Shown here piece after piece: positions 7,006 through 25,925 of a stretch of 30,948 bases of DNA. The notes beneath the pieces were generated by a model that was not told the origin of the DNA, searched no databases, and saw only the letters and a list, made by a program, of their open reading frames with translations. Origin of the DNA: Myxococcales bacterium (GTDB lineage Bacteria > Myxococcota_A > UBA9042); contig JBBISH010000082.1 in the NCBI GenBank assembly GCA_037441385.1, positions 1-30,948 of the forward strand, read 5' to 3'. Made by a program: the position numbers and the translations under genes. Numbering within the stretch: position 1 is the stretch's first letter; each line of letters begins with the position of its first letter.

Positions 7006-7030
7006 GTGCGAGGAGCGGGACTTGAACCCG
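7006..7030. repeat. att site: displaced 3' fragment of tRNA-Leu
   Basis: GTGCGAGGAGCGGGACTTGAACCCG, identical to 25901-25925. TGG at 7004-7006 (CCA on the minus strand) overlaps its first base. Confidence 0.95.
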
Positions 7031-7132
7031 ACGAAGCGGAGTTTGCCCACGCCGGCACCCGCTGTCAAGGCTTCGCTGGCCCCCGCACAACGACCACGAC
7101 ACCTGAAGTTTCAGCGCTTTAGCCGCACGCCC

Positions 7133-7408
7133 ATGGGTCCGGCGGTCAAGACCTTTGTGACCACCGGTTGCCTGGGCCAAGAGCTCGGCTTCCTTTGGCG
7201 TCTGACCGGCTTCGTCGACGCCGACACTGGCCGCAGCTGCGCGTGCCAGGTGTGCTGCGAGCTGGCCAGCTTCACCTACGTGGCGATGAACTCGGCTTGC
7301 GGCTGCGCCGACTGCCAGAGCTCGCGAGCGGTGGCCGCTGGCCATGCCTTCCGCCACCGTGGCCTGCGGGCCGAGTGGAACCGCTCGACCCTGCGCCGCG
7401 CGGCCTGA
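7133..7408 (+). CDS. Small Cys-rich hypothetical protein
   Basis: CACQVCC and CGCADC clusters, GC3 bias in the 3' part. Start uncertain. Confidence 0.45.
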   Translation: MGPAVKTFVTTGCLGQELGFLWRLTGFVDADTGRSCACQVCCELASFTYVAMNSACGCADCQSSRAVAAGHAFRHRGLRAEWNRSTLRRAA

Positions 7409-7437
7409 CCTGACCACCCAACAACAGGAGCAACGAC

Positions 7438-7683
7438 ATGAAAATCTTTCACAAGGTTGGCAACTTCTTTGGTGCCATGGAGCGCGTGGTGGACAACGCC
7501 GCGGCCGGCCGCGACGTGCTGGCGCCGCCGTCGTACGTCAACAAGCGCCGCGAGCTGTGCGAGGCCTGCGAGCTGCGCAAGGGCCTGGTGTGTACCCACA
7601 ACGACTGCGGCTGCGTGATTGCGGCCAAGACCCGCCTGATCAGCGAGGCGTGCCCGCTGGGTCGGTGGGGCCGTGTCGCGTAG
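7438..7683 (+). CDS. Small Cys-rich protein, DUF6171-like
   Basis: AGGAG RBS; pattern R-x3-CEAC...C-x4-CGC-x4-K-x7-CP-x3-W. Confidence 0.7.
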   Translation: MKIFHKVGNFFGAMERVVDNAAAGRDVLAPPSYVNKRRELCEACELRKGLVCTHNDCGCVIAAKTRLISEACPLGRWGRVA

Positions 7684-8935
7684 GCAACAGGTCGCCCAGG
7701 ACGGCGACTTTCCATCCGATGCGCCTGCGGACTCGGCCCCGGAGCGGCTGCTTTGGCCGGTTTGGGACCAGGACCAGGGCGGCCCGGCGCGCGACCACGT
7801 CAAGAACACGGAAGCGCTGCTCAAGTACTACAAGGTCCAGGTCCGCTACAACCTGATGACCCACGACCTGGAGGTGACCATTCCCGGCCGCGAGCTGGCG
7901 AGCGAGCGCCGCGCCAACTGCACGGTCGACTGGGTAGAGAACCGCGCCGCCGAGCACGGCCTGAGCCGCGCGCCCATCATCAAGCACCTGCAGGAGTTGG
8001 CCAGCGAGTACCACCCGGTGCGCGACTGGGTCAACGAAAAGCCGTGGGATGGCGTCGACCGCGTACCTCAGCTCATGGCCTCACTTGAACTGGCCGAGTC
8101 GGCCGACCCCGACATGTGTGCGCTGTTGATGCGCCGCTGGCTGCGCGGTGCCGCTGCAGCGCTTTGGCCTGAGTTTGAGCAGAACTTTGCGGCGCAGGGC
8201 GTGCTGGTGCTTCAAGGACCGCAAGGCCATGGAAAGACCAGGTGGCTGCAAAACTTGGTGACTGACCGGAGCTGGATGCTGTCTGGCGAGTTGCTGGACC
8301 CAGGCAATCGGGATTCGACTCAACGGGCCACCTCGGTATGGCTGTGCGAGCTGGGTGAAGTCGATGCGACCTTCCGCAAGGCCGACATCGCCGCACTCAA
8401 ATTCTTTGTCACTCGCACCGAGGACACGTACCGCTTGCCCTATGCCCGTAGGGCCGAGCGCACAGTGCGCCGCACAGTTTTTGTCGCCAGCGTCAACGAC
8501 GAGCAGTACCTGGTCGACCGCACGGGCAACCGGCGCTGGTGGACCGTGTCAATCGAGTGGTGTCACGACCACAACGTCGACATGCAACAGCTGTGGGCCC
8601 AGATGCTGCACGAGGTGGTGCTGGAGAAGGCGCCCTGGTGGCTCGACGAAAGCGAGATGGACCGGCTGAACAACGCCAACCGCAGCCACGAGCAAGAAGA
8701 CGTGATGGCCGGCGTGCTGGGCGAGTACTGGCAAGTGCTCTACCCCGGCGCCGAGATGGGCGACTTCGAGTGGCGTCCGCTGGCCAAGGTCTGCGGCGTG
8801 CTACCGCAGTTTGCCCAGCGCCTGCCCAGCCAGGCCGAGATGCGCCGCGTGACCGACGCGCTGCGCGACATGGGCGTCGCCAAGAAGCGCGACAAGTTTG
8901 GGATGAAGTACTTGCTGCGGCGTATCGCCGACTAG
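7673..8935 (+). CDS. VapE/virulence-associated-E family P-loop ATPase (replicative helicase-like)
   Basis: YHPVRDW...WDGVDR, Walker A LQGPQGHGKT, WLCELGE, RLPYAR, SVN, YLVDRTGNRRWW and QLWAQ motifs. Confidence 0.88.
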   Translation: MSRRQQVAQDGDFPSDAPADSAPERLLWPVWDQDQGGPARDHVKNTEALLKYYKVQVRYNLMTHDLEVTIPGRELASERRANCTVDWVENRAAEHGLSRAPIIKHLQELASEYHPVRDWVNEKPWDGVDRVPQLMASLELAESADPDMCALLMRRWLRGAAAALWPEFEQNFAAQGVLVLQGPQGHGKTRWLQNLVTDRSWMLSGELLDPGNRDSTQRATSVWLCELGEVDATFRKADIAALKFFVTRTEDTYRLPYARRAERTVRRTVFVASVNDEQYLVDRTGNRRWWTVSIEWCHDHNVDMQQLWAQMLHEVVLEKAPWWLDESEMDRLNNANRSHEQEDVMAGVLGEYWQVLYPGAEMGDFEWRPLAKVCGVLPQFAQRLPSQAEMRRVTDALRDMGVAKKRDKFGMKYLLRRIAD

Positions 8936-8944
8936 GGGGGAAAT

Positions 8945-9316
8945 TTGAAGCGAATCAGCACACTTAGAAGTGGCGTGGTCGCCGCGGCCATGATGGCGAT
9001 CGCGGGAGGTGCGGCGGCCGAGGCCTCAGCACCGCCGCTGGAGAGCCAGGCCCCGGCGCAACCGCAGCAAGAGCGCCAGCAAGCGGTGGTCGACGAGGGC
9101 GAGCTGGAGAGCAAGAAGAAGCGGGCCGTGGCGCGCCGCCACCAGATTCCGGTGGTGCTGCACGGGCCGCAGCAAGCGCCGACGACGAGCTGGTCCAGCA
9201 CCGGGGTCCTGTGGTCGGGGTTCAAGGCCAGCCGCAGCTCGACCAGGCCGGCGCGCAAGGTGAACCGACTGCACCTGGCCCGGGCGGCCAAGCAGCGGCG
9301 GCGGAGGGCGCAATGA
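8945..9316 (+). CDS. Hypothetical protein, basic C-terminus
   Basis: Fills the operon between VapE and the next gene (ATGA overlap at 9313-9316). Start uncertain. Confidence 0.5.
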   Translation: MKRISTLRSGVVAAAMMAIAGGAAAEASAPPLESQAPAQPQQERQQAVVDEGELESKKKRAVARRHQIPVVLHGPQQAPTTSWSSTGVLWSGFKASRSSTRPARKVNRLHLARAAKQRRRRAQ

Positions 9317-9579
9317 GCACGAAACCAAAGCAGTTCTACTGGCAATTGCGGCAGCGCAAGACCGGCAAGGTGGGCACAGCGATGCACGCGTACCGCTGCT
9401 TTGACCCAACCAAGCAGCGATGGCCAAAGCCGTGGGTGCCTCTGTGCGGCGAGGGCCAACACCCAACGCATTTTGCGGTCATGTTCGACCAGGTGCGCAA
9501 GGGCGTCCCTGACCCAGAGAAGTACATGGTGTGCGCTGGGTGCTGGCTAGCGGTCCAGGCCGCGCGCCGGGGCAGCTGA
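9313..9579 (+). CDS. Small putative zinc-binding protein
   Basis: GGAGG RBS; H...LCG...CAGC ligand pattern; 88 aa. Confidence 0.6.
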   Translation: MSTKPKQFYWQLRQRKTGKVGTAMHAYRCFDPTKQRWPKPWVPLCGEGQHPTHFAVMFDQVRKGVPDPEKYMVCAGCWLAVQAARRGS

Positions 9580-9600: not shown

Positions 9601-9860
9601 GGTGTAGGGTCTGCGCGACTGCCTACACCCCGAAGTGCGCAAAATCACAGAGCCGCGGTGTAGGCAGTTTGGGAGCCTACACCCGCATACACCTGAAATC
9701 ATTGGCGGTGTAGGCAGTGTAGGCAAAATCCCATGTACGGGAGCGTGCGCCCGCGCTCGCGCACACACGCGCGGAGACCTACACCTACACCTGTGCAGAT
9801 AGTAGAGAGATACCAACAACTTGCGGGTGTAGGCAGCCAATTCGGACCCTACACCCGCAA
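9601..9860. repeat. Putative replication origin: array of GGTGTAGG/CCTACACC repeats
   Basis: Nine exact 8-mers (9601, 9622, 9657, 9676, 9707, 9778, 9784, 9826, 9848) in both orientations; perfect 13-bp inverted repeat 9821-9833/9848-9860. Non-coding, downstream of the VapE operon. Confidence 0.65.
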
Positions 9861-9882: not shown

Positions 9883-10845
9883 ATGGCCAAGAAGCCCAAC
9901 CTCGTCACCTCGAACAGCTGCCCCGGCTGCGGCAAGGACTTTGAAAGTCCCCAAGCAGTGCGGGGACATCTGCGTTTTTGCCCCAACCGCCAGGCCGTGG
10001 TGGGCAAGCAGCCGCCGGCGCCTGCCTTTGTCGCCGAGGTCAAGCCCCAGCCGGCGCCAGTCGCCGCGCCTGCTGCAGCAGCCCCTGCCCAAGCTGCTGA
10101 GCCCAGCGCCGCCCCGGCCTTTGTCGCCCAGGTCGACGCACCGCCGCCGCCCCCTGCCCCGCCGGCCGCCACCGAAGAGACCCAGTATGTGCCGCGGATG
10201 CCCCTGCCCAACCCGCAGGCCGGCACCGGTGGTGTGCCGCTCGAGCAGTGGCATGCAGGCGGCGCCTTCCCCAACCGCCTCGAGGAGCTGCACCCCGAGC
10301 CGCCGGCCCAGGCTCAGCTGCAGGCGGCCGCGGGCACGGTGTCGGTGGCGACGGTGGGCGCACCGGCGGCGCCAGGCGCGCAGCTCGCCCAGGTCGAGTC
10401 CGCCACGCCGGCGGTGGACGTCGTCAAGGTCATGCAAGTCCTGAGCAAGCGCATGTTCCAGTGGGAAGGCGGCGGGCCGCTGACCGACGAAGAGTGCGAG
10501 CTGCTGCGCACCGTCATCACCTGGCAGCCCGGCCCTACCAGCGGCGCCGCGCTGATCCTCGCCGGCGTGTTTGGCCCGCGCCTGCTGACCCACCCCAAGG
10601 TGGCCGACGCCATGGGGCGGCTGTTCGACGCCGGCATCGACCGCCTGGTCAGCGAACTCGGCGGCGACGAGGCCAAGCCTGCAGCGCCACCGGCCCGCGA
10701 AGAGCGTCCAGACGCAGCGGCTTCGATGCCTGCGAGCGTTGCCCAGCCGGTGGCCGTCCGCGACCCCGACGACGAGCTGCGCGCCGAGTGGGCTGCCCGC
10801 GGCGTCGACCTGGACGAAGTGCGCCGCGCAAAGGAGGCGGCATGA
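9883..10845 (+). CDS. C2HC zinc-finger protein with Pro/Ala linker and hydrophobic C-terminal segment
   Basis: AGGAG RBS, ATG 9883; CPGC-x12-H-x3-C; GAALILAGVFG segment; ATGA overlap with the ATPase. Confidence 0.75.
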   Translation: MAKKPNLVTSNSCPGCGKDFESPQAVRGHLRFCPNRQAVVGKQPPAPAFVAEVKPQPAPVAAPAAAAPAQAAEPSAAPAFVAQVDAPPPPPAPPAATEETQYVPRMPLPNPQAGTGGVPLEQWHAGGAFPNRLEELHPEPPAQAQLQAAAGTVSVATVGAPAAPGAQLAQVESATPAVDVVKVMQVLSKRMFQWEGGGPLTDEECELLRTVITWQPGPTSGAALILAGVFGPRLLTHPKVADAMGRLFDAGIDRLVSELGGDEAKPAAPPAREERPDAAASMPASVAQPVAVRDPDDELRAEWAARGVDLDEVRRAKEAA

Positions 10846-11459
10846 CCCGCCGCCCGACCTTTGACCCGCTCATGGCCGACCGCCACGCCTGGGTGCAGGT
10901 GGTGCTGGGCAAGGCCGGCAGCGGCAAGACCAGCTACATGAACCTGGTCCTGGCCCTGTGGCGGCAGCGCCTGGGCGGCCACAGCCTGGCCATTGACGCG
11001 GTGTGCCCACCCAAGCCCACGCCCAAACACCTGGCCTACTGGGCCAGCGCCTGGTGCATCGAGCCGCCCGACGAGCTACGCCCCGAGTTCAGCCTGGTGG
11101 CCTGCGACGAGGCCCAGCGCTTCCTGGGCAGCGGCGGCGTGCGCGGCGGCAACAAGGTCCTGCAAGAAATCACCTTTCGCGGCCGCCACACTGGCAAGTA
11201 CGGCACGTCGGCGCTGCTGGGCACCCAGCGGGCCAAGCACATCCACCCCGACGTGTGGAGCCAGGCCAAGCGGGTGGTGTGCTTCCGCACCATCGACCAG
11301 CACGACCTGGAGCGTATCAGCGACCTGGCGGGCATGACGAGCGAGGCCCTGGCGCTGCTGCCGCACTTGCCGCCGGGCTACGCGGTGGTGTGGGACGAGC
11401 AAGACGGCCTGTTTTACCCGTGGGTTCCCGAGTGGTCCGCGGCGAAGGTGGGCCGATGA
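10842..11459 (+). CDS. FtsK/HerA/A32-like ATPase, putative genome-packaging ATPase
   Basis: 205 aa; Walker A VVLGKAGSGKTS, Walker B LVACDEAQ, arginine-finger RGRH, LLGTQR, VVCFR. No TM. Confidence 0.82.
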   Translation: MTRRPTFDPLMADRHAWVQVVLGKAGSGKTSYMNLVLALWRQRLGGHSLAIDAVCPPKPTPKHLAYWASAWCIEPPDELRPEFSLVACDEAQRFLGSGGVRGGNKVLQEITFRGRHTGKYGTSALLGTQRAKHIHPDVWSQAKRVVCFRTIDQHDLERISDLAGMTSEALALLPHLPPGYAVVWDEQDGLFYPWVPEWSAAKVGR

Positions 11460-11686
11460 TCACGCCGGACTGCCTGCGAAGCGTGCGGCAAGCGCGCGGC
11501 CTGTCGATTGAGGCCGTGGCGGAGCTCGCAGGGTACGCCCCAGGCACGGTCTGGAGACTTGAACAAGGTCGCGCAGTTCGGTGGCAAGTCCTGGTCGACG
11601 TGGCCTTGGCGCTGGGCGTTTTACATGCGGGACGCGGGAGCGGTGCACACTCACCTGTGCAAGTCATTGATTGCATGGCGTGTTGA
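11456..11686 (+). CDS. XRE-family HTH regulator
   Basis: LRSVRQARGLSIEAVAELAGYAPGTVWRLEQG; ATGA overlap with the ATPase stop. Confidence 0.85.
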   Translation: MITPDCLRSVRQARGLSIEAVAELAGYAPGTVWRLEQGRAVRWQVLVDVALALGVLHAGRGSGAHSPVQVIDCMAC

Positions 11687-11731
11687 CGGAAAGTCGGGTC
11701 TGTCAACCCGCGTACTCTTCAATATATTGAA
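11682..11731. promoter_or_regulatory. Putative control region of the structural operon
   Basis: GTTGAC-N14-GTCAAC (11682-11707) and perfect AT-rich palindrome TTCAATATATTGAA (11718-11731) upstream of the capsid-candidate RBS. Confidence 0.45.
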
Positions 11732-11819: not shown

Positions 11820-13067
11820 ATGGCGATTCGTACTCTGGCGCGCAAGACCAACACCGGCACCGGGACCCTGCAGGTCATCCAGGATCCCATCTACGACCAC
11901 ACCTTCCGCGTCGACGCAGTTCTCATCAAGCTGCGGGCGAACATCAAGAACACTGATACCTCCGCGCAGAACATGAGCGCCGCCACGTTTGGCCACGCCT
12001 GGAAGCTGAAGTACGAGTACGCCGACGGCATGAAGTGGTACGACAACGTGCCGCTGGTCGCTGTGGAGCGTATCTTCGAGCAGACCACGCGCAACTATCT
12101 GGTCAACCCAGTGGAATTCGCCAAGTCGGCGGCGTCGTCGGCTCTGTCGACTTACAGCAGCGATGGCCTGATTTCGGCCGGTGCGGCGCCGAACCCCGTC
12201 ACCGGCAACATCAACGACCTGACCCGGAGCTTTCAGAAGGAAGTGCGCGACCGCCGCGTCATTGCCGTCAGCGGCACGGCGTCGGACATCGACTTCCGCT
12301 TCCTGCTGCCCCTGGCGCGGCCCAACGCGAGCAAGCCGGTGGACTTCTGCCAGGCCCTGTCGCTGCTGGGCAAGCTGGACGTCCAGCTGACCAACGACAC
12401 CGGCAATGCTTTCCTGACCGTCAACAGCTTCACGGTCGAGGCCATCGCCATCGGCGAGCGCGTGGACAACTTCTACGCCGGCGTCCGCACCCGCCACTTC
12501 ATCCAGGGCGCCCAGCTCAACGTCATCGACGACGCCATCGCCTTTTCGGGCGACCGCCTGCTGGCGCACCACATGTACGCCACCAGCGGCAGCATCGCCG
12601 GAGTCGACCTGGTCGCCAAGCTGGACGGCAGGCACACCATCGTCGAGCTGAACAATGGCACGGTGGTCACCGAGTTGAACAAGCTGACCGGCGTGGTGGC
12701 CGGCGACTTCCCGGCCGACAGCGAGCGCAACATGACCGACGCGGTGTTGGTGGTCGCCGAGCCGTTCAAGTACAGCATCTTGGACCGGCCCATCAGCCGG
12801 GGCCTGAGCCTGCACTGGTCGAGCAACGCGGGCACGCCCGGTACCCAGTTCCACGTGGTGTCGGTGGCGGCGCCCAAGTCGGACCGCTGCCGCGTGGCGA
12901 CCTACCCGGGCGGCGGCAACATTACCCCGGCCAGCCTGGACCGCGTGACCCGCGTGCAGGCCCGCAACCCCGGCATCGACCCCAACGTGCTCAAGAACAT
13001 CAAGGACTGGCTGCCCGAAGAGGTCTTCACCCCCGAGGCCACCGGCTCGGCGCCCTGCGGGGCGTAG
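11820..13067 (+). CDS. Putative double-jelly-roll major capsid protein (415 aa)
   Basis: AGGAG RBS and strong codon bias. Two repeats of a strand-strand-DG-strand-helix pattern (VDAVLIKLRA..KLKYEYADG..VPLVAVERIF..FRFLLPL..LDVQLT; LLAHHMYA..LVAKLDGRHTIVEL..VVTELNKL). No TM; located just after the packaging-type ATPase. Fold inferred by eye. Confidence 0.68.
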   Translation: MAIRTLARKTNTGTGTLQVIQDPIYDHTFRVDAVLIKLRANIKNTDTSAQNMSAATFGHAWKLKYEYADGMKWYDNVPLVAVERIFEQTTRNYLVNPVEFAKSAASSALSTYSSDGLISAGAAPNPVTGNINDLTRSFQKEVRDRRVIAVSGTASDIDFRFLLPLARPNASKPVDFCQALSLLGKLDVQLTNDTGNAFLTVNSFTVEAIAIGERVDNFYAGVRTRHFIQGAQLNVIDDAIAFSGDRLLAHHMYATSGSIAGVDLVAKLDGRHTIVELNNGTVVTELNKLTGVVAGDFPADSERNMTDAVLVVAEPFKYSILDRPISRGLSLHWSSNAGTPGTQFHVVSVAAPKSDRCRVATYPGGGNITPASLDRVTRVQARNPGIDPNVLKNIKDWLPEEVFTPEATGSAPCGA

Positions 13068-13085: not shown

Positions 13086-13097
13086 CTATGTGAATAG
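13086..13097 (+). repeat. CTATGTGAATAG motif, copy 1
   Basis: 19 nt after the capsid-candidate stop, in context CCGCCGGCGG-motif-CCTGCAGGCGG. Confidence 0.9.
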
Positions 13098-13176: not shown

Positions 13177-13995
13177 ATGGCATCGAAGTTCGGAAACATC
13201 AAAGACCTCTGGTCCAACTTGGACACCTGTATTCGCGACAGGACGTCCTGGATTGAGCTGGGTTCGGCAGCGACCGGTGGATATCCGGCCATGCTCAAGC
13301 TCCTCGCTGAGAAGGCCCAGGAGTGCTCGGCTGACCCGAATACCCAGTACCGGACGGCAGTACAACTCGCTGAACTCTTTGGGCAGACGCCACCGAAGCA
13401 GTCAGATTTTGGCATCAACGCGGATGGGACTGTCGGCAAAGGAACCACCATGAACGACGGACGCGGCTCGCAGACGGTTGGTGACCCGGCCGACCAGGCC
13501 AAGAACCAACATGACGACATCGCCCGGGCCATTTCGTACCAGTTGCTCGGCACCAGTTGCACCAGCGACATCCAGCTTCCGGGCAACACCTGGTCGCGCT
13601 GCCGGACTGGCATGGATGGCTACGGCTATACCATTGACACGTCGCGCTACCCGCTGACCAACAAGCAATTCGTGGCGATTAAGCAGGCTGTGCAAGATGC
13701 GGCGGCTCTGGGGACCACACCCGACGACATGCTTGCCCGCGGCCAGGCGGCCGCCACGGCGGAGCTCGCCAAGCTGGGCATTGGGGCCAAGCTGCCCGGC
13801 CCATCCGGCGGCCCCGGCATGATCCCCGGCGAAGTCGGCCCCGGCATGATCCCCACCGGCGGCGACCCCGGCAGCACCGGCACCAGTCGGCCCCAAAAGT
13901 CCAACACCGTCGCCATGGCCGGCCTGGGCCTGCTGGGCGGCGCCATCGCGCTCGTGGGCGCCTGGTACATCGCCAAGGCCGTCAAGGCCAAGTAA
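13177..13995 (+). CDS. Tail-anchored membrane protein, putative virion protein
   Basis: GAGG RBS; four Cys; Gly/Pro linker with GPGMIP twice; C-terminal TM then AKAVKAK. Confidence 0.7.
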   Translation: MASKFGNIKDLWSNLDTCIRDRTSWIELGSAATGGYPAMLKLLAEKAQECSADPNTQYRTAVQLAELFGQTPPKQSDFGINADGTVGKGTTMNDGRGSQTVGDPADQAKNQHDDIARAISYQLLGTSCTSDIQLPGNTWSRCRTGMDGYGYTIDTSRYPLTNKQFVAIKQAVQDAAALGTTPDDMLARGQAAATAELAKLGIGAKLPGPSGGPGMIPGEVGPGMIPTGGDPGSTGTSRPQKSNTVAMAGLGLLGGAIALVGAWYIAKAVKAK

Positions 13996-14021
13996 GCGCC
14001 CGCAGCGCCAAAGGATTCGCC

Positions 14022-14450
14022 ATGAGCTGCAGCAGCTGCCAGATGAAGAAGCACTCCGGCCACAAGGACGGCGGCGGAGAGCAATTTGAGGCGCACGTAC
14101 GCAGGCTCGCCCACAAGGCCGGCATGCAGCATCGGGCGAGTTCTGCGCCCGCTGGCCATGCCGAAGCAAGTGCTGCGCCAGCCGCCCATGCCGAGCTGGT
14201 TCCGCCCCCCGAGCGGCAGACAAGGGTGATTGCCCACATCGACGACAAGCAGCCGCTGGAACCCGTGCGGGTCGACCCAAAGCGCCCCGGCATCCCTGGC
14301 GATGCTGGCCCACAAGGCTGGGACATCAAGCACACCCACGCCACCAGCAACCTGTGGCACGAGCCGGTGACCTGGCTGGCGGGCGCGCTGGCGCTGTCGG
14401 CCGTCGCCGGCCTGGTCTCGACCATCATCTATGTGAAAGCAAAGGGCTAA
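14022..14450 (+). CDS. Tail-anchored membrane protein
   Basis: N-terminal MSCSSC, His-rich body, C-terminal TM then VKAKG. Confidence 0.7.
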   Translation: MSCSSCQMKKHSGHKDGGGEQFEAHVRRLAHKAGMQHRASSAPAGHAEASAAPAAHAELVPPPERQTRVIAHIDDKQPLEPVRVDPKRPGIPGDAGPQGWDIKHTHATSNLWHEPVTWLAGALALSAVAGLVSTIIYVKAKG

Positions 14451-14455
14451 GCACG

Positions 14456-15851: not shown

Positions 15852-15858
15852 GGTTACT

Positions 15859-18266: not shown

Positions 18267-18410
18267 ATGAGCACGGCGTACTGCATGAAATGCGAGGGCA
18301 AGCACACCATCAAGGGCGAGACCAGCAAGAAGGCCAAGAACGGCGCTTACCTGGTGCGCGGCAAGTGCAGCAAGTGCGGCGGCAAGGTCGCGACCTTCAA
18401 GAAGGGCTAG
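18267..18410 (+). CDS. 47-aa Lys-rich zinc-ribbon protein, DUF5679-like
   Basis: Below the ORF-track cutoff; AAGGAG RBS; MSTAYCMKCEGKHTIKGETSKKAKNGAYLVRGKCSKCGGKVATFKKG. Confidence 0.78.
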   Translation: MSTAYCMKCEGKHTIKGETSKKAKNGAYLVRGKCSKCGGKVATFKKG

Positions 18411-18467: not shown

Positions 18468-18635
18468 ATGAGCAAGACGGTCAAGGTCGAGGGTTACACC
18501 CGCAAGGCGACGCACCGCAAGGGCGGCAAGGTCCGCCAGCACTCGCGCAAGGGCGCGGACGTGAAGGCGACCAAGGTGGCGGGCTACACCCGCAAAGCGC
18601 CGAGCAAGAAGGCCAAGGCCGGGCAGCTGCTTTAG
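18468..18635 (+). CDS. 55-aa highly basic protein, putative DNA-condensing core protein
   Basis: Below the ORF-track cutoff; GAGG RBS; MSKTVKVEGYTRKATHRKGGKVRQHSRKGADVKATKVAGYTRKAPSKKAKAGQLL with KVxGYTRKA twice. Confidence 0.68.
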   Translation: MSKTVKVEGYTRKATHRKGGKVRQHSRKGADVKATKVAGYTRKAPSKKAKAGQLL

Positions 18636-18827: not shown

Positions 18828-18989
18828 ATGACAAAGGCAAACGCGCACAGCGACAAGCACAAGCCGACAAAGGCAGAGCTTCAAGAGCAGGTGCGGAAAA
18901 TCCAAAAGGAAGTTCGCAAGGTAGTGGGCGACAAGCGCAGCTTGGTCGACGAGTTCCTGGCCGAAAAGCACCAGGCCCCGCAGCAGTGA
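18828..18989 (+). CDS. vapB: Short VapB-like antitoxin
   Basis: GGAGG RBS; SLVDEFLAEK resembles VapB C-termini; GTGA overlap with the PIN gene. Confidence 0.62.
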   Translation: MTKANAHSDKHKPTKAELQEQVRKIQKEVRKVVGDKRSLVDEFLAEKHQAPQQ

Positions 18990-19378
18990 AGTACCTGCTC
19001 GACGCCTCGGCGCTGCTGGCCGTGGCCAACAACGAGCGCGGCGCCGACGTGGTCATGGATGCCGCCGGGCTCGCCGTGATCAGCTCAGTCAACTACGCAG
19101 AAGCCGCACTGAAGCTGCGAAGAACGGGCATTCCCATGACCGTATTGATGCAGCTCAAAGCGGTGTTTCCCGTTGTCCCGTTTGCCGCCGCCGATGGCTT
19201 CTACGCCGGTTCGATTGCTGTGGACAGACCCCGACGCGATTCTGGATTTGGGCTTGGTGACCGGTGCTGCCTTGCTGTGGCCAAGCGACTCAAGGCAGTT
19301 GTGCTGACCAGCGACAAGAAGTGGGCTGAGCACGACGAGGCGACCAAGACCGGCGTGCAGCTGCTGTTTATTCGCTAG
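18986..19378 (+). CDS. vapC: PIN-domain VapC-family toxin
   Basis: YLLDASALLA, ISSVNYAE, GLGDRCCLA, VLTSDKKW. Confidence 0.9.
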   Translation: MKYLLDASALLAVANNERGADVVMDAAGLAVISSVNYAEAALKLRRTGIPMTVLMQLKAVFPVVPFAAADGFYAGSIAVDRPRRDSGFGLGDRCCLAVAKRLKAVVLTSDKKWAEHDEATKTGVQLLFIR

Positions 19379-19381
19379 CTG

Positions 19382-19771
19382 CTACGCCACCCGGTCCGCA
19401 GCCCAACCCCGCACGACCCGCCCCACCCAGGGCTCGCGCACGTACCGATGCACCACCGCCGAGTACTCGGCCACGTCCTTCGGCACAAAGGCGCGGTGCT
19501 GACTGTCCAGCCCGGCAACCTGCACGGTCGCGTTGCGCCACTCGTTGGGCCCGACGCCGTCGCAGGACTGCCACGCGGCCCGGCTGGCCAGCTGCCACTG
19601 CACTTCGAGCAGCGCGCCCACCTCGTGGTGGTGGCGCACGCGGTGCTGCTCGCGGAGCTCGATGGTCAGGGCTTCGAGCATGTCCGAGTTGGCGCGGCCG
19701 TGGTTCAGGGCCAGCAGCTCGCGCACCAGGCCGCGGGTGTCGACGGTTCGTTCGTAGGAGCGGCGCGGCAT
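19382..19771 (-). CDS. Hypothetical protein (129 aa)
   Basis: GAGG RBS before the ATG at 19771; directly downstream of the nucleotidyltransferase-like gene. Confidence 0.6.
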   Translation of the reverse strand: MPRRSYERTVDTRGLVRELLALNHGRANSDMLEALTIELREQHRVRHHHEVGALLEVQWQLASRAAWQSCDGVGPNEWRNATVQVAGLDSQHRAFVPKDVAEYSAVVHRYVREPWVGRVVRGWAADRVA

Positions 19772-19809: not shown

Positions 19810-20481
19810 CTACGACAGCTTGTAGCGCTTCTTGGCCTTGGGATGGCCAACGCTCTGCAGCATCGTTTCCAGGCGCCCCATCAGCAGCGGCGCGTACTTG
19901 GCAGTCAGCTTGCGCACCTGGTCGACGTCGGTGGTCGGCAGCAGCAGCAGGCGGCACACGTCGTCGTCGTCGGTGGGCCGGGCCGCCGCCAACTTCATGA
20001 TCAGGAGCATCGGCGCCGACACCACCGGCAGGCAGCGCCCGCCCACTTCGACCTGCAGTTGCTCGCGCTTGCTGGCGGCGATAGCGGCGCGAAACAGCGC
20101 GCTCAGGTCGCCCCACTCGGGGTTGCTGCGGTCGATGAAGTCGACGTTGACCCCGCTCGCCTTGTCGCTGGCGTTGAAGCCGCCAATCAGCAGCTCTTGC
20201 ACCTTGAGGCCCTTCTTGGTCGCCCAGGCTCGCAGCTTCGGCAAGTCTGCCGGGGCGACCCCCATGTCCAGGTCCTTGGTAAAGGCCTGCTGCGAGGGGT
20301 CGGTTACCCAGGCCCACACCGCCAGGCGGCCGATGAGCACGCCGGCGACGCCCGTTTCGCGCAGGGCATCGTCGGCCAGGCGGCCACTGGGCGCTGGGTC
20401 AAAGGTCGGGAACGGCCGGCCGGCGTTGACGATGGTGACGCCGTTTGATTTTGCGGGTTTGCTGCCGGGTTTGCTGGGCAT
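19810..20481 (-). CDS. Pol-beta-superfamily nucleotidyltransferase-like protein
   Basis: LIGRLAV...TKDLD, VDFI and LLIMKLAAARPTDDDD motifs (AbiEii/DUF6036-like pattern). Confidence 0.72.
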   Translation of the reverse strand: MPSKPGSKPAKSNGVTIVNAGRPFPTFDPAPSGRLADDALRETGVAGVLIGRLAVWAWVTDPSQQAFTKDLDMGVAPADLPKLRAWATKKGLKVQELLIGGFNASDKASGVNVDFIDRSNPEWGDLSALFRAAIAASKREQLQVEVGGRCLPVVSAPMLLIMKLAAARPTDDDDVCRLLLLPTTDVDQVRKLTAKYAPLLMGRLETMLQSVGHPKAKKRYKLS

Positions 20482-20531: not shown

Positions 20532-20894
20532 TCAGGCTTTGGGCTTCTTGCCAAAGAGACCGCGAAAGAGCTCCAGAAGCCCGGGAATGGCGAATACAAC
20601 CAGCGCACCGAAACAGAACGACTGAATCAGCGACACCGCCTTGTCCAGCTCGATACCGCCAACTGTCATGCCGACCAGGGCGCAAAATGCCAAGAGAAAT
20701 ACCACGAAGCCAACAATGATCATGCGGTGTAGCCTGTCCAGCTCGGCCATCCGCGCCTTGTGGCGGGCCCGGTGTTGCTCAAGGCGTCGGTCGAGGTCGC
20801 GCTGATGGGCCTGAAGGTGTCGCTCAAGCAAAGTCAGCAGTTGCTCAAAGATAGCCCTGTCGGGGCTTTCGGGCGTTGGACTCGGCTGCGTCAT
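20532..20894 (-). CDS. Membrane protein (coiled coil plus two TM segments)
   Basis: GAGG RBS; IIVGFVVFLLAFCALVG and FCFGALVVFAIPGLL. Confidence 0.65.
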   Translation of the reverse strand: MTQPSPTPESPDRAIFEQLLTLLERHLQAHQRDLDRRLEQHRARHKARMAELDRLHRMIIVGFVVFLLAFCALVGMTVGGIELDKAVSLIQSFCFGALVVFAIPGLLELFRGLFGKKPKA

Positions 20895-20927: not shown

Positions 20928-21464
20928 ATGCGACGACTACTTGTGGCAGCTCTGACCCTGGCCGCATGCGCGGCACCATATCGACAGATTCCGGTTGCAG
21001 ACCGGATAGCACCAGCCGCCAAGGTCGGTATCCTGGAATTCCGCGACTGCCCCAATGCGAAGGGCCCAACGTGCGACGGCAGCGGAGTGGCCGCTACTGC
21101 AGCATTTTCGAAGGGCTTTGAAGAAGAAGCCAAATTGACGCTGGTGCGAATTGCCCGGCCGGTTGCGGCCAACGCGCTGATCACCGACAAGCAGGCGATT
21201 GCGGCCGCAGCGGGCGAAGGCGTTGATTTTGTGTTGGTCGGCGACGTGCACGCGTACTTGGACATGCAGCCGTCCGGCGCACCCGTGGAGATGTACGGTG
21301 GGGGCAACCGCGACCAGGCTGGGCTGCTCGTGCGGCTGATTCGGCTTCGCGACAAGCGTGTGGTGGCGACCTTGAACCAGGACCAGACTGGCATGGCCAG
21401 GGACGTCCCGGACGAAATGTTCCAGAACATGGGCGCGGACTTCGCGCGGACAGTTCGGCAGTAG
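20928..21464 (+). CDS. Putative lipoprotein (alpha/beta domain)
   Basis: AAGGAGG RBS; MRRLLVAALTLAAC lipobox; GVDFVLVGDV strand. Confidence 0.75.
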   Translation: MRRLLVAALTLAACAAPYRQIPVADRIAPAAKVGILEFRDCPNAKGPTCDGSGVAATAAFSKGFEEEAKLTLVRIARPVAANALITDKQAIAAAAGEGVDFVLVGDVHAYLDMQPSGAPVEMYGGGNRDQAGLLVRLIRLRDKRVVATLNQDQTGMARDVPDEMFQNMGADFARTVRQ

Positions 21465-21465: not shown

Positions 21466-21831
21466 TCACGCCGACTTCCGCTCTTCCAGCGGCCTCAGCT
21501 GAATCCCCCGCTCATCCGCGAACTTCTGGACGTCGGCCAGGTCGAAGCGAAGCTCGCCGAGGGCCTTGCGGGCAGAGAGCTGGCCGCGGTGCACGTACAT
21601 CCCGACCGCGCCAGCGGAAACGCCGAGCATGTCCCCGACTTCCTGCGACGTAAGACCGCTGATCATCGAACGAAAGCGCTCCAGCTCGTCCAGGCTGTAG
21701 ACGATTGCCGTCCCGCCCGCGACGCGCTCGTGCTGCAACTCACCCTTTCGGGTCCAGTGCCGCACCATGTACTCGGACATGTTGAGCATTTGAGCTGCTG
21801 CGCGTACCCCGAACAACTGTGCCTCTGTCAT
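21466..21831 (-). CDS. Tandem MerR/excisionase-type HTH protein, putative repressor or recombination directionality factor
   Basis: Two repeats: VRAAAQMLNMSEYMVRHWTRKGEL and TSQEVGDMLGVSAGAVGMYVHRGQL. Confidence 0.82.
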   Translation of the reverse strand: MTEAQLFGVRAAAQMLNMSEYMVRHWTRKGELQHERVAGGTAIVYSLDELERFRSMISGLTSQEVGDMLGVSAGAVGMYVHRGQLSARKALGELRFDLADVQKFADERGIQLRPLEERKSA

Positions 21832-21856
21832 GGCCGACTCTCGCGGCGTAGGCCGC

Positions 21857-21921
21857 ACTATACAAAATTGACGTGGGCACCGTCAAGACATGTTGACATC
21901 CCTACGAGCCCCCGCTAAGCT
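21857..21921. promoter_or_regulatory. Back-to-back sigma70-type promoters with operator-like inverted repeat
   Basis: Plus: TTGACA 21893-21898, N17, TAAGCT 21916-21921. Minus: TTGACG 21886-21881, N18, TATAGT 21862-21857. TTGACG-N7-CGTCAA at 21868-21886. Confidence 0.65.
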
Positions 21922-21944: not shown

Positions 21945-22454
21945 ATGAAGAACCCGCACCCAACCCCAAGAACAATCATGCACATGGTCCAGAGCGCGGC
22001 CGAGGCCCACCTGGACTGCCGACTGCGCGAAGCCGAGGCCCAGGCCGCCTTCGACCGCAACAACCGCGCCGAGCAGGCGCTGTCCACTGCCGAGAAAGCT
22101 TTCGTCCAAGCCCGGGCCAACCTGCTGACCTTCATCGCCCGGACCAACCCCACCAGCATGAAGGTGAGCGCGATGGACGAGTTCGCCGTCCTCGCCGCCA
22201 CCTACCGCGACCGCGCCAACGCCGGCCTGGCCGCCAGCGAGGAGTTCATCACGTCCTCGTACGACGTCATGCGCGAGCGCAACGACACCGGGACCCTCGC
22301 CAAGCTCAAGCTGGACCTGGAGCTCCGCGCCAAGCGCCTGAGGATGGCGGTCAAGGCCGAGCCCTGCGACTGCGACGAGTGCCAGTGGGAGCGCGACCAT
22401 CCCACCGTCAAGGACACGGCCGAGGTCGACGGGCCTTCCGGCGGGGAGGGCTAG
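21945..22454 (+). CDS. Helical hypothetical protein with CDCDEC motif
   Basis: GGAGG RBS; first gene of the rightward early operon. Confidence 0.65.
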   Translation: MKNPHPTPRTIMHMVQSAAEAHLDCRLREAEAQAAFDRNNRAEQALSTAEKAFVQARANLLTFIARTNPTSMKVSAMDEFAVLAATYRDRANAGLAASEEFITSSYDVMRERNDTGTLAKLKLDLELRAKRLRMAVKAEPCDCDECQWERDHPTVKDTAEVDGPSGGEG

Positions 22455-22457
22455 GTC

Positions 22458-22856
22458 ATGGCGACCACCCGCGAAGACATCCTTGCCCTGGTCCGCACCT
22501 ACGCCACAGACGTTGGCGCGTGCCAGTTTGCGAGCGACGCCCAGTACGCCCAAATGCAGGTCGCGGCTCGGGCCACGTTCGCCAAGATTGAGGCGGCGGT
22601 GGGCGAGTTGCAGCGGACGCCGGACGACTTGCCGGCCTGCATCGAGAGCTGGGTGCTTGCGAAGGCGGCGAGCGTCCGCAGCTGGAAGGCCATGAGCCTG
22701 AAGCGTATCGGACGCGACGAAGTCACCTACGAGATTGAATTGGCCATCGCGCGGCTGGTCAAGGCCGGCCGCCTGCAGCGCCTGAACTTTGGACACGGGC
22801 ATGTGGAATACGAGCTTCGCGCGGTCGACCAGGCCGCTGCCGACAAGGAGGCCTGA
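22458..22856 (+). CDS. Hypothetical protein with C-terminal winged-helix-like motif
   Basis: IELAIARLVKAGRLQRLNFGHGHVEYEL. Confidence 0.6.
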   Translation: MATTREDILALVRTYATDVGACQFASDAQYAQMQVAARATFAKIEAAVGELQRTPDDLPACIESWVLAKAASVRSWKAMSLKRIGRDEVTYEIELAIARLVKAGRLQRLNFGHGHVEYELRAVDQAAADKEA

Positions 22857-22859
22857 GCC

Positions 22860-23756
22860 ATGACCCCGAACCACACCCCAGACCCGCGTATCGTCGACAT
22901 CCTGGAAGCCGCCGAGGCCGTGGCCGTGGAGCGCGCCGCCCTGGCCGCGGCCCGCGCCGCCGAAGACGCCGCCCGGGCGGTCGAGCAGGCGGCCCAAGTC
23001 GCCTACGTCGAGGCCCACAACGCCAGCATCGCGGCAGTGCGCGAGGCCTGCACCAGCGTGGACTGGGCCGACGCCAACACCACCACCACCACCCAGCGCG
23101 CCTTGACCGCGTTTCATGCCCGGCGCAAGGCCAGTGATGCGGCGGCGGCGGCGCAGGCCGCGGTCGACCAGGCGCAGCAGCGGTTCAGCGCGGCGCTGGA
23201 ACGGCAGCAGGCCGCCATTTCGATGGTCGAACTGGCGCTGGCGGCGCTGAAGGTCTTCCTGGCCGAGCCGGAGACCGACCCGTCCAGCCTGGTAGACGAA
23301 CTCATGGACTCGCTGAAGGCCAAGAACTGGGTTGAGGTATCCGGCCAGGTCCCGCCGCGGGTCGAGCAGACCGCCGGCGTCTATGTGAATAGGCTGCAGG
23401 TGCCGGCACTCGACCGCGACCAGGCCATTGGCGCCCAGGTGCGGGCCGAGCTCGCCACCGCGCCGGCCCGGGTGCCTGTCTTGCCCGAGCCCGACCTCAC
23501 GGGGCTGCGCAGCCGCGCCCTGGCCATGATGAAGGTCTTGATCAAGGCCGACGCGCCCGTGGCCGTCGCCACCATCATGCGCGAAACCGGCTTGAGTTCC
23601 GCCGAGGTATCGCGAGCCGGCTACGACCTGCGCCAGGCGGGCAAGGCCCAGAAGCTCGGCCCGGGCTTTTGGGCCCACGCCAAGTACACGGGGCCGAAGT
23701 TCGACGACAACCACGACCAGCACTGGGCCAAGCGGACGGCCAAGGCGGAGGTATAG
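22860..23756 (+). CDS. Ala-rich coiled-coil protein with C-terminal winged HTH
   Basis: AAGGAGG RBS; VATIMRETGLSSAEVSRAGYDLRQAGKAQKLGPGFW. Confidence 0.7.
   Translation: MTPNHTPDPRIVDILEAAEAVAVERAALAAARAAEDAARAVEQAAQVAYVEAHNASIAAVREACTSVDWADANTTTTTQRALTAFHARRKASDAAAAAQAAVDQAQQRFSAALERQQAAISMVELALAALKVFLAEPETDPSSLVDELMDSLKAKNWVEVSGQVPPRVEQTAGVYVNRLQVPALDRDQAIGAQVRAELATAPARVPVLPEPDLTGLRSRALAMMKVLIKADAPVAVATIMRETGLSSAEVSRAGYDLRQAGKAQKLGPGFWAHAKYTGPKFDDNHDQHWAKRTAKAEV
23371..23400 (+). repeat. CTATGTGAATAG motif, copy 5, 30-bp extended form inside a CDS
   Basis: CCGCCGGCGTCTATGTGAATAGGCTGCAGG, in the linker of ORF 22860-23756. Confidence 0.92.
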
Positions 23757-23759
23757 GCC

Positions 23760-24056
23760 ATGGCCAAGAAGCGCATTCCCACCAAGCCCTTGCTGCTCAG
23801 CGACCTGCAGCGCGCTGTGCTGCTGCTCATCGGCCACACCGACCGCGCCACCGTGCACGGCCTGCTGCGCCAGCTGCCGGCGCTGGGGCACCAGGTGCGC
23901 CAAACCGTGCTCGAGCAGCTGCTCGAGGAGCTCACGGACTGGAATTTCTGCGCCAGCTACCCGTCGACGGACCGCCAGGGCCGCACGCGATACCTGCGCC
24001 TGACCATCCTCGGCCGAGAGGCCGTGGCTACCCCTACGGCTCAAATCGAGTTGTAG
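23760..24056 (+). CDS. Small winged-helix-like (PadR/MarR-like) protein
   Basis: GGAGG RBS; LEQLLEELTDWNFC...RTRYLRLTILGREAV. Confidence 0.62.
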   Translation: MAKKRIPTKPLLLSDLQRAVLLLIGHTDRATVHGLLRQLPALGHQVRQTVLEQLLEELTDWNFCASYPSTDRQGRTRYLRLTILGREAVATPTAQIEL

Positions 24057-24098
24057 TCTCAATGCCCTCGCCGGGCCACCCAAGGAGCCGTTACCACC

Positions 24099-24647
24099 AT
24101 GAAACTCTTGACCCTTCTCAAAACCTCGGCCCACCAGGCCATTGACGTGCGCCGCAAGACCCTGGAAGCCAAGCTCGCCCTGCTGGACCAGCAAGACGAG
24201 CTGATTGACGAAGTCGACGAGGCCACGCTGGCCGAAGTGCTCGAGCTGGTCGCCAACTTTGGCGGCCCGGACCTGACTGGCATTCCCGACCTGGCCGACC
24301 TGAGCGACCGCCTGGCCGACGTGGCCGTCAACAAGAAGGCGCCGGACGTCGCCACCCCCACCGAACCCGCGCCCAGCGAAGTCCTGGACCCGCCGCCGCC
24401 CGACCCCAACTTCGACGCGCAGCCGGCCGCCCTGGCCCAGGAGCACATCGACCTGGTGCACCAGGTGCTGAGCCGCCAGGGCGACCGCGTGCGCCAGAGC
24501 GAGGCCGGTCTGGTCAACCAGCTGCCCGAGCTGGGCGCCGAAGTCGTGAGCGCCGCCGTCGACCACCTGGTGAGCAGCGGCGTGGTCGAGCGCGTGGGCG
24601 AAGGCGTCGTCCGGGTGCTGACTCAATTCGTGCGCAGCGCGCTGTAG
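24099..24647 (+). CDS. Acidic hypothetical protein with C-terminal winged-helix-like motif
   Basis: AAGGAG RBS; VSAAVDHLVSSGVVERVGEGVVRV. Confidence 0.62.
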   Translation: MKLLTLLKTSAHQAIDVRRKTLEAKLALLDQQDELIDEVDEATLAEVLELVANFGGPDLTGIPDLADLSDRLADVAVNKKAPDVATPTEPAPSEVLDPPPPDPNFDAQPAALAQEHIDLVHQVLSRQGDRVRQSEAGLVNQLPELGAEVVSAAVDHLVSSGVVERVGEGVVRVLTQFVRSAL

Positions 24648-24669
24648 TACCCGCTGTAGGAGCCGAATC

Positions 24670-25866
24670 GTGACCGACACCGCCGCCAGCTTCACCTTGC
24701 ACCGGGCCGACCATCGCGGCGCCGAGAGCTGGCGTGCGGTGGTCACGTTGCCCGATGGCCGCAAGCTTTGGTTCCGCCGGCCGACCAAAGCCCTGGCCCA
24801 GGCCGCCGCCCAGGCCGCCCTGGTCGCCGGCACCACCATCACCATCGAGCGCGCCATCGACGAGTACTGCGTGCTGCGCTTTGAAGGCGGGGCCTGGAGC
24901 AAACACACCGAGCGGCGCGCCAGGCTGGACCTGGGCGACCTGGTGGGCCAGGACAGCCAGCCCATCGCCAGCATGGGCCGCCAGGCGCTGCTCGAATACC
25001 TGGAGCGGACCAAGCACCTGGCGCTGGCCAGCCGCCGCACCCGCTGGGCCAGCGTGGTGGCCTGGCTCAAGTTCTGCGTGGCCGAGGGCTGGCTGGACCG
25101 CAATCCGGCCGACTTGATTGACCGCAGCCGCAAACCCTGGCTGGGCAAGCGGGCCAAGCGGCAAATCGGCCGAGGCAAGGCGCAGTTGCGCAACTCAGAC
25201 GAAGTGCAGCGGTACATTACCGAGGCGCTCCGGCTGGTCGAGCTTGAAGAGCGGGTGGCGGTGCTGCTGCCGCTGCTGTGCAACATGCGCTCCGGCGAGG
25301 TACTGCACTTGACCTGTGGCGACGTGGACTTGCCGCTGGGCGTGCTGCATGTGCGCGACCAAGACGCGCGCGAAGACGACGACGAAGGCTGGTCGGTCAA
25401 GAGCGTGGCCGGTCGCCGGTCGGTATACATCCCCCAGCTGCTGGCGGCCGACCTGGCGCTGCTGGTGCAAGACCAACCGCTGGACCGCTGGCTGTTTGGC
25501 TGCTGGGGCCGCGAAAAGGGCGACCGCCGCCGGCGCGTGCCCCACGACTGCGAGTGGCTGGCGCGCCTGGTCGAAGGGGTGTGCGAGCGGGCCCAGACGC
25601 GCATCGTGAAACCTCACGGGTTGCGGGGCACTTACATGACCGTGCTGGCCGTGGTCGGCAAGGTCGCACCGATGGACATCGCGCGCTTGGTCGGCCACGG
25701 CGACGCCGGCTACACCGCCGAGCGCCACTACCTGGGTGCGCTGAGCCCGCAGCCGGCGATGCCGGAGCTGGGCGCGAGCGCGAACACCGTGAAAGGACGC
25801 GAGAACCCGGGCAGCGATTCACAAGTTTCTAACGGCCCATTGGGGCAATCGGGGGAATGCCAATGA
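24670..25866 (+). CDS. int: Tyrosine recombinase/integrase
   Basis: Catalytic set visible: MRSGE (R), VKS (K), HGLR, VGH, RHY; core-binding domain ending RNPA; adjacent to att/tRNA. Confidence 0.93.
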   Translation: MTDTAASFTLHRADHRGAESWRAVVTLPDGRKLWFRRPTKALAQAAAQAALVAGTTITIERAIDEYCVLRFEGGAWSKHTERRARLDLGDLVGQDSQPIASMGRQALLEYLERTKHLALASRRTRWASVVAWLKFCVAEGWLDRNPADLIDRSRKPWLGKRAKRQIGRGKAQLRNSDEVQRYITEALRLVELEERVAVLLPLLCNMRSGEVLHLTCGDVDLPLGVLHVRDQDAREDDDEGWSVKSVAGRRSVYIPQLLAADLALLVQDQPLDRWLFGCWGREKGDRRRRVPHDCEWLARLVEGVCERAQTRIVKPHGLRGTYMTVLAVVGKVAPMDIARLVGHGDAGYTAERHYLGALSPQPAMPELGASANTVKGRENPGSDSQVSNGPLGQSGECQ

Positions 25867-25900
25867 ACGCCAGAATCAATCGCAATACCAATGGGTTGCA

Positions 25901-25925
25901 GTGCGAGGAGCGGGACTTGAACCCG
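25901..25925. repeat. att site overlapping the tRNA-Leu 3' end
   Basis: Identical 25-mer to 7006-7030. Confidence 0.95.

Follow-up and report, generated by a model that had tools for sequence, protein, structure and literature searches.

A probable temperate double-jelly-roll provirus in uncultured Myxococcota

All prokaryotic double-jelly-roll (DJR) viruses except the tectivirids are united in Abadenavirae, according to the available text of PMC12451622. Integrating members are already on record: the accessible part of Yutin et al. (2018) (PMC5894146) describes bacterial DJR proviruses with STIV-group integrases and variable replication modules, and excerpts of PMC12715192 report integrase-type DJR prophages in Vibrio whose lysogeny modules are shared with inoviruses. 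Here, we analyse a stretch of 30,948 nt from a Myxococcales bacterium (contig JBBISH010000082.1 of assembly GCA_037441385.1), hereafter the window, in which positions 7006-25925 form a provirus of 18,920 bp when integrated and 18,895 bp as a circle. Its GC content is 67.3%, against 66.9% in the host. We consider it very probable that this element is an intact, temperate, tailless, icosahedral double-stranded DNA (dsDNA) virus with a DJR capsid, belonging to an undescribed family-level lineage that infects one family of uncultured Myxococcota. The kind is thus known already; the capsid family, the host phylum and the replication module appear new.

The STIV group (Turriviridae; STIV, TKV4, MVV) resembles the element in its circular genome of similar size (17,663 nt in STIV), its tyrosine integrase, its DJR capsid (structural Z of 17.0, within 1.3 of that for PRD1) and its B204-like ATPase, encoded just upstream of the capsid gene. 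The sources available in part add swappable replication modules and, in some members, PIN genes. The element differs in carrying a VapE helicase rather than the rolling-circle endonuclease (RCRE), MCM or DNA polymerase (DNAP) modules described in those sources, and in its peptidoglycan lysins; no turret or pyramid homologue was found. At the sequence level the capsids share a hint only (hhalign P 0.018), and the bacterial STIV-group sequences of PMC5894146 are known here by description. The terms Myxoc*, Deltaproteo*, VirE and primase do not occur in its available main text, although the supplements could hold a member of this family. Turriviridae are further defined by archaeal hosts, whereas the host here is a bacterium of the Myxococcota that bears MYXO-CTERM proteins.

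Tectiviridae (PRD1, PR772, Bam35, GC1) provide the best structural match to the capsid and share the many small membrane proteins, the two lysins and a slot for an assembly factor before the ATPase. In contrast to them, the element is circular and integrating, has direct att repeats instead of inverted termini and lacks the N-terminal segment of P3. A codon model fitted to this genome called 34 open reading frames (ORFs), and 33 of them were scanned against Pfam and PHROGs; none matched a protein-primed family B polymerase or terminal protein, and no ORF in the element is of that size. Vinavirales (PM2 of the Corticoviridae, Jorvik and the NO16-like vibriophages) are likewise circular dsDNA viruses, temperate in Gram-negative bacteria, with a DJR capsid and the order ATPase, capsid, membrane proteins. 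Compared with PM2, however, the capsid protein is longer (415 vs 269 amino acids (aa)), the genome is nearly twice the size and none of 31 capsid family members matches the Pfam family of PM2 P2. The same scans found no rolling-circle initiator like that of PM2, the replication gene being the VapE helicase. The element is therefore neither a tectivirus nor a corticovirus and is unplaced relative to the STIV group; with a DJR capsid and no polymerase family match, it falls under the definition of Abadenavirae.

Described myxophages (Mx1, Mx4, Mx8, Mx9 and Mx alpha) share the host phylum with the element, and Mx9 integrates with a single int gene, as far as the available sources go. The preliminary description of this locus regarded the classical myxophages as tailed. 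This stands for Mx1, Mx4, Mx8 and Mx9, which are myo- or podoviruses, but not for Mx alpha, whose units are ~80 kb and whose particles are tail-less and about 35 nm in size (accessible part of PMC6070905). A preprint (10.64898/2026.09.14.751636) assigns 777 of 790 myxobacterial viral operational taxonomic units (98.4%) to Caudoviricetes, with no mention of jelly rolls in its available portion. The element lacks what defines Caudoviricetes: it has no HK97 capsid, portal, nuclease terminase or tail, and no portal, tail or HK97 capsid family was matched among the 33 scanned ORFs. The sole 'terminase' label among these is phrog_2666, on residues 84-184 of the ATPase, a label also carried by the records of PRD1 P9, PM2 P9 and STIV B164. 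We found no paper on DJR viruses of Myxococcota or on VapE in DJR viruses, with most subscription papers outside the search; the available parts of PMC9502842 and PMC13626063 hold no relevant mention, and the literature compared also includes portions of PMC12714852 and PMC10848233.

Capsid protein and packaging ATPase

The capsid protein is encoded at 11820-13067 (+ strand). It is 415 aa long, rich in beta strands and predicted to fold as a double jelly roll, the hallmark of Varidnaviria, as had been proposed from its sequence. It has six close relatives with 45-77% identity, a profile search returned 25 representatives (E 0.001), and the model from the 31-row alignment reached a predicted local distance difference test (pLDDT) score of 80.6 and a predicted template modelling score of 0.80, with residues 100-142 disordered and a helical C-terminal extension. 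PR772 and PRD1 P3 headed the Foldseek ranking (E 9e-13), with STIV next (2.5e-10). Structure alignment gave a Z of 18.3 to PRD1 P3 (root-mean-square deviation (rmsd) 4.2, 303 residues aligned), 17.0 to STIV B345 (rmsd 4.2, 271 aligned), 16.1 to PM2 P2 (rmsd 3.2, 243 aligned) and 14.0 to FLiP. Cellular DJR enzymes of the DUF2961 type reached only 10.6-10.8, which is 5-8 Z units below the viral capsids. The best three matches in BFVD were the capsids of GC1, Wip1 and STIV. Since the alignment starts at P3 residue 37, the N-terminal segment of P3 is absent from this capsid; the STIV alignment sets residue 1 against chain residue 4.

Judged by sequence, the capsid family is an orphan. None of its 31 members matches a capsid family in Pfam or a named family in PHROGs, PDB sequences returned antibody chains only, and neither INPHARED (E 1) nor IMG/VR gave a match, with tools that may omit records very near the window's genome. 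These searches turned up no relative that is cultured or annotated, in line with the earlier suspicion that the lineage is undescribed. Comparison of the family profile with single sequences by hhalign gave hints to PRD1 P3 (P 0.0038) and STIV B345 (P 0.018), involving the same N-terminal strands, and none to PM2 (P 0.075) or Bam35. In the Atlas, P3- and P2-bearing clusters appeared at 0.96 but with low recognition, which makes them a lead only, and one P2-bearing cluster ranked 12th by features only. No second DJR capsid or ATPase was found in the host genome.

Of 33 capsid sequences, namely the 31 aligned ones and those of G407 and G137, 17 have a cysteine within the last four residues. All close relatives are among these 17, and the cysteine is possibly a site of lipidation or of a disulphide. 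In STIV, the C-terminus of the capsid protein anchors in the membrane; by analogy, our guess would be that the capsid protein here does the same.

Just upstream, 10842-11459 (+) encodes a 205-aa ATPase of the FtsK/HerA superfamily, the predicted packaging ATPase, with matches to STIV B204 (E 1.4e-8) and SH1 ORF17 (49.7 bits). Its Walker A and B motifs and arginine-finger region are invariant in 10 of 10 aligned rows. It has no hydrophobic segment, membrane anchor or insertion, in keeping with the short soluble protein first described, whereas the plasmid proteins it matches are 400-615 aa long. Superfamily, size and position beside the capsid gene are those of an A32-like ATPase, and a role in DNA packaging is probable because of the protein's size, its lack of a membrane anchor and its fixed place before the capsid gene. 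Against chosen references, the ATPase profile scored highest on SH1 ORF17, followed by a plasmid HerA-like protein (37.6 bits), a T4CP-like protein (24.3), a truncated STIV ATPase (23.4), P23-77 (23.3), PM2 (15.5), Bam35 (12.8), PRD1 (10.8) and M13 gI (7.3). The ATPase sequence has no match in IMG/VR.

Integration, relatives and host

The element is bounded by a 25-bp direct repeat, GTGCGAGGAGCGGGACTTGAACCCG, exact at 7006-7030 and 25901-25925. A third copy is absent from the 6.63-Mb genome, and in 50 codon-shuffled windows the longest exact repeat was at most 18 nt (mean 15.4). The right att core (+) is the 3' end of an intact tRNA-Leu(GAG) gene (25901-25985, minus strand), while the left core (+), together with 7004-7005, holds the displaced 3' end of the native tRNA-Leu, including the encoded CCA. 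The bases encoding CCA continue the left copy and the empty site of the congener G001, but are absent after the intact tRNA copy; hence the element moved the native 3' end to its left side and rebuilt the tRNA on its right. The empty site in G001 (L033) consists of a 27-nt match that includes the left att core bases, with a single copy of the core and the left-flank genes within ~1.3 kb of tRNA-Leu. The tyrosine integrase (24670-25866, +; PHROG integrase E 1.7e-24) retains R207, K244, H316, R319, H343 and Y354. Direct repeats, all six catalytic residues and an empty site in a congener are what would be expected of an integrated temperate provirus, and the first two had been noted in the preliminary description.

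In another congener, G007 (L029, G007:C532), 106 bp at 2160-2265 are 88% identical to window positions 25794-25899 and lie between the host left flank and tRNA-Leu. This remnant reads as the scar that a provirus left on its deletion. A 153-nt host repeat next to the left att, on the host side, occurs at 1106-1258 and 6832-6984 (78% alike), and since many contigs of sequencing run X1 match it, it is a dispersed element. The right flank encodes a Cys-rich host protein whose tail resembles MYXO-CTERM (E 0.0059, under the cut-off) and a vWA-type protein, at 26632-27648 (minus) and 28170-29957 (minus).

The relative L001, which we count together with the G005 match as one observation, has the same att core at its start, the same gene order and a capsid with 77% identity. 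A second relative, L002/L003, comes from a metagenome. Its contig of 18,456 nt has a terminal repeat of 55 nt and hence represents a circle of ~18.4 kb; the '01um' in its name presumably denotes a 0.1-micron filter fraction. It matches 22 of 34 genes at E 1e-3 in the same order, one match being probably due to chance. It has a single att-like copy, identical at 19 of 21 nt, which is separated from the stop codon of the integrase gene by 36 nt (against 35 nt in the window) and precedes gene 1, an arrangement corresponding to the attP layout predicted for the excised circle. The capsid fold and this circular relative in its excised arrangement bear out the earlier proposal of a temperate tailless DJR provirus, to which an internal membrane and a virion would belong.

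More distant relatives are confined to the same host family. The ATPase profile found members in 4 of the family's 37 genomes; the count for the whole class is also four (of 107 genomes), as no match lies outside the family. The capsid profile found 3 in 401 genomes drawn from the phylum, again all in the host family. Many of these genomes are incomplete and the counts are lower bounds. One of the members (G407:C7:35739-51443) is complete: this 15.7-kb provirus lies at tRNA-Asp, has a 26-bp att and encodes a capsid, an ATPase and an integrase that are 23%, 40% and 41% identical to those in the window. To its left, a host cluster whose ORFs look sheath- and tube-chaperone-like by eye (G407:C7:25017-29371; L026 17-4372) resembles a contractile injection system. 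Another, G137:C251, is partial and more distant. It has a methyltransferase-like ORF (recognised by a motif, with no Pfam match) and a CHAP peptidase (L019 988-1644 and 4692-5111) in place of a glucosaminidase and amidase pair.

The host encodes 12 MYXO-CTERM proteins over the cut-off, compared to none in 14 control genomes, which points to Myxococcota. The idea of a myxobacterium-like host was thus right as to the phylum, but the host is presumably from a small uncultured class (107 genomes) and not of the classical Myxococcus type. The only spacer candidate in the host's CRISPR search (C60, 31 nt) is a low-complexity coding sequence.

Virion proteins, activity and competing explanations

Hydrophobic segments occur in 10 of 34 ORFs, nine of them among the ten genes of 13177-18239, matching the many small membrane proteins first noted. 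Five consecutive proteins, all encoded on the + strand (13177-13995, 14022-14450, 14456-14956, 14956-15309 and 15306-15851), each have a single membrane anchor, at the C-terminus, with a basic tail, and a 129-nt repeat (14822-14950/15172-15300) spanning two of these genes makes the two paralogous. Four further proteins, including both lysins, have N-terminal anchors. The nine membrane-segment proteins downstream of the capsid gene are consistent with an icosahedral virion enclosing an internal membrane, by analogy with described DJR viruses. Among them are a Gly-zipper protein (15859-16164, +; PF13441 E 6.8e-5, below the cut-off; 58% identity to L003) and a candidate holin-like or virion membrane protein with an N-terminal membrane segment and a helical tail (16604-16957, +; phrog_1397 E 4e-4). 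The two lysins are a membrane-anchored, FlgJ-like glucosaminidase (16957-17646, +; PF01832 E 1.9e-12) and a membrane-anchored N-acetylmuramoyl-L-alanine amidase (17646-18239, +; Amidase_2, PF01510 E 5.9e-15), as the preliminary description had it.

The product of 16257-16607 (+; 116 aa), with homologues in L003 and G407, is predicted to be a single jelly roll of eight strands and is a candidate penton or vertex protein. Its best model (pLDDT 85.3) is nearest to XepA (Z 10.8) and YomS (Z 10.0), both of which are pentamers. PRD1 P31 and STIV A223 are not among the listed matches, where absence excludes nothing. On the other side of the ATPase gene, 9883-10845 (+) encodes a Pro/Ala-rich protein with an N-terminal Zn-finger-like motif, kept in L001, L002 and G407 (E 2e-22). 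By its position before the ATPase, the gp-h/P10 slot (PMC10589892), it is a candidate membrane-assembly factor. Two small basic proteins, a DUF5679 zinc ribbon (18267-18410, +; PF18930 E 4.5e-8) and a peptide with 31% K/R (18468-18635, +), are candidates for condensing DNA.

Together, these genes suggest the following life cycle. The tyrosine integrase inserts the circular genome at the 3' end of tRNA-Leu(GAG), and the tRNA is rebuilt in the process, as is visible in the sequence. The divergent helix-turn-helix (HTH)/excisionase gene and a toxin-antitoxin pair would maintain the lysogen. Induction would lead to excision as a circle, a form seen in the relative L002/L003 rather than in this copy, and the VapE helicase, with host primase and polymerase, would replicate it from an array of CCTACAC repeats. 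Trimeric DJR capsomers and single-jelly-roll pentons, as predicted from their folds, would be built over an inner membrane vesicle like that of PRD1, PM2 and STIV, which the tail-anchored membrane proteins might shape. The FtsK/HerA-type ATPase would then package the DNA, and the two anchored muralytic enzymes may serve entry and lysis.

Several results weigh against this interpretation. In PDB, the 10-row ATPase profile scored HerA (39.2 bits) level with STIV B204 (37.8 bits, E 1.4e-8, over 70-186), and the T4CP-like protein (24.3 bits) outscored the ATPases of PM2, Bam35 and PRD1. An 18-row ATPase tree (omitting the near-identical P0038 and P0039 and a long host ATPase, and using STIV in its 164-aa annotated form) left viral packaging ATPases and HerA, T4CP and gI unseparated, with long branches and 9 of 15 inner branches open; the nine family rows fell on one side of a weak branch (76/57). 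The fold of the penton candidate is generic, with 24 chains at Z >=8, and just one of its five models reached pLDDT 85, the others scoring 54-68. Among the element's genes we identified neither a spike or receptor-binding protein nor a clear holin or spanin. As for activity, only one of three sequencing runs, X1, covers the element and may be the source of the window; X2 and X3 contain only scraps, and no RNA run with the element is listed. The X1 contigs cross both att sites unbroken, at depths of 11.1 and 10.6, compared to 13.6 for a piece of the left flank. The contigs of the three runs contain neither an attP nor an attB joint, although contigs drop rare variants. This suggests a quiet lysogen in sample X1; of the circular attP junction that had been predicted, the layout is found in L002/L003 and the joint itself is missing from the contigs of this sample.

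The absence of an excision signal and of a spike gene could also mean that the provirus is defective or domesticated, with genuine DJR-virus genes but no infectious particles arising from this copy, and the scar in G007 demonstrates that decay occurs at this site. We nevertheless think this unlikely. No internal stop interrupts any of the 34 ORFs, the ratio of nonsynonymous to synonymous substitution rates (dN/dS) relative to L001 is 0.16-0.33 in all five genes tested, and both att copies are exact. The circular relative, moreover, has the same structural genes and likewise no long spike gene among its called ORFs.

Still less probable, and by a good way, is a satellite or helper-dependent element whose induction, entry or lysis would rely on a second prophage in the same genome, the terminase-bearing C31/C143. 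The integrases of the two are 40% identical, the helicase resembles that of tailed phages without its primase half, and no spike or spanin was found. Yet the element has a capsid, a penton candidate, an ATPase and lysins of its own, and module exchange explains the related integrases. The assembly pathways of DJR and HK97 capsids are also not known to share parts.

A non-viral integrative element, with a cellular DJR-fold enzyme and with an ATPase and membrane proteins for secretion or conjugation, would fit the ATPase scores on HerA and the T4CP-like protein and the cellular enzymes at Z 10.6-10.8, but is scarcely credible given the higher-scoring viral capsids, the short ATPase without anchor or insertion and its mere 7.3 bits on M13 gI, the absence of secretion and relaxase families among the ORFs scanned, and the presence of lysins and a single jelly roll.

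If the element is the temperate DJR virus we take it to be, it extends these viruses to Myxococcota, where nearly all viruses described so far have tails. Relatives are present in about 1 in 9 genomes of the host family despite a capsid with no database match, and tailless DJR viruses escape capsid profiles and are therefore under-counted; the new capsid and ATPase profiles can be used to find more. More tentatively, and with doubts outweighing our confidence, the element may found a new clade within Abadenavirae, at the level of a family or an order, that comprises the first described DJR viruses of Myxococcota. Such viruses would swap integrase and replication genes with tailed phages, replicate with a primase-less helicase and an iteron origin, and enter without a conventional long spike, by means of a small single-jelly-roll vertex protein and anchored lysins.

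Replication, regulation and accessory genes

The VapE helicase, the origin repeats and a repeated 11-mer, like the penton candidate, go beyond the preliminary description. The VapE-like P-loop helicase (7673-8935, +; PF05272 E 1.2e-45) shares 37-38% identity with the helicase half of primase-helicases from two tailed phages, Burkholderia phage Mica (38% to residues 366-751 of 774) and Escherichia phage ECO1230-10. These proteins of 767-774 aa have an N-terminal primase part that the element's helicase lacks, and no such half turned up in the window, L001 or L002/L003. Preceding the helicase are a small Cys-rich protein, the first gene after att (7133-7408, +; start uncertain; homologues in L001 (74%) and L002 (38%)), and a conserved Cys-rich protein of 81 aa (7438-7683, +; phrog_13558 E 2.7e-13). 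Two small genes follow (8975-9316 and 9313-9579, +), called as ORFs and compared with the relatives.

The 253-bp non-coding gap at 9602-9854 holds ten CCTACAC repeats, five per strand. Elsewhere in the genome the motif occurs at most three times per 300 bp, while the same position has ten copies in L001 and seven in L002; no such array lies beside the two tailed-phage helicases checked. This candidate origin may consist of iterons from which the helicase drives theta replication, the primase being that of the host. No gene of the G407 provirus matches VapE; an HTH-bearing ORF lies there next to another kind of repeat cluster, so the replication module is exchangeable. Clusters of ACGCATC in G407:C7 (L026 11256-11339; L027 4426-4531), one of them beside the HTH-bearing ORF (L026 11503-12549), replace VapE and CCTACAC there.

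Between the ATPase and capsid genes lies an XRE-type HTH regulator (11456-11686, +; HTH_31 E 1.1e-11), in the same slot in L001, L002, G407 and G137. It is followed, upstream of the capsid gene, by a perfect palindrome, TTCAATATATTGAA (11718-11731), a candidate operator with one copy in the genome, present in L001 and degenerate in L002. The 11-mer TATGTGAATAG has all five of its genome copies inside the element: the first at 13087-13097 (+), the others at 16192, 18423 (minus), 19787 and 23382. It usually sits within GCTAT-GTGA-ATAGC, which caps a GC-rich hairpin as its loop. One copy is in frame within 22860-23756, and the other four lie at gene ends or between genes. L001 has two to three copies, and neither this 11-mer nor the exact palindrome occurs in L002/L003 or L019. 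The 11-mer is a candidate operator, terminator or processing site.

Downstream of the virion genes, a putative antitoxin (18828-18989, +, named by its position) precedes a PIN/VapC toxin (18986-19378, +; PF01850 E 2.4e-11). Three accessory genes on the minus strand follow, at 19382-19771, 19810-20481 (nucleotidyltransferase-like; DUF6036 E 0.02, a weak match) and 20532-20894 (a two-helix membrane protein). The translation of 20928-21464 (+) is a lipoprotein with a lipobox and a candidate superinfection-exclusion gene. PADLOC found no match among the six accessory genes, and the slots holding the PIN pair and the lipoprotein vary among relatives. A tandem HTH_17 protein (21466-21858, minus; PF12728 E 3.8e-15, TIGR01764 over the cut-off; 58% to L002/L003), presumably an excisionase or regulator, is divergent from the integrase operon. 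Upstream of the integrase lie five genes that are without a family or of the winged-HTH type (21978-24647, +), two of which have homologues in L002.

The integrase is 61% identical to that of L002, compared to 41% for G407 and 40% for a second prophage in the same genome. This prophage occupies tRNA-Asp(GTC) (G000:C31:42542-52880 and G000:C143:1-14478, with the partner of its 25-bp att on C143), and C143 holds the genome's sole Terminase_6N match. That the G407 DJR provirus also sits at tRNA-Asp with a related integrase suggests integrase exchange between tailed and tailless viruses. The element may swap replication and integration modules with tailed phages, which would make it a concrete case of such modules moving between tailed and tailless viruses.

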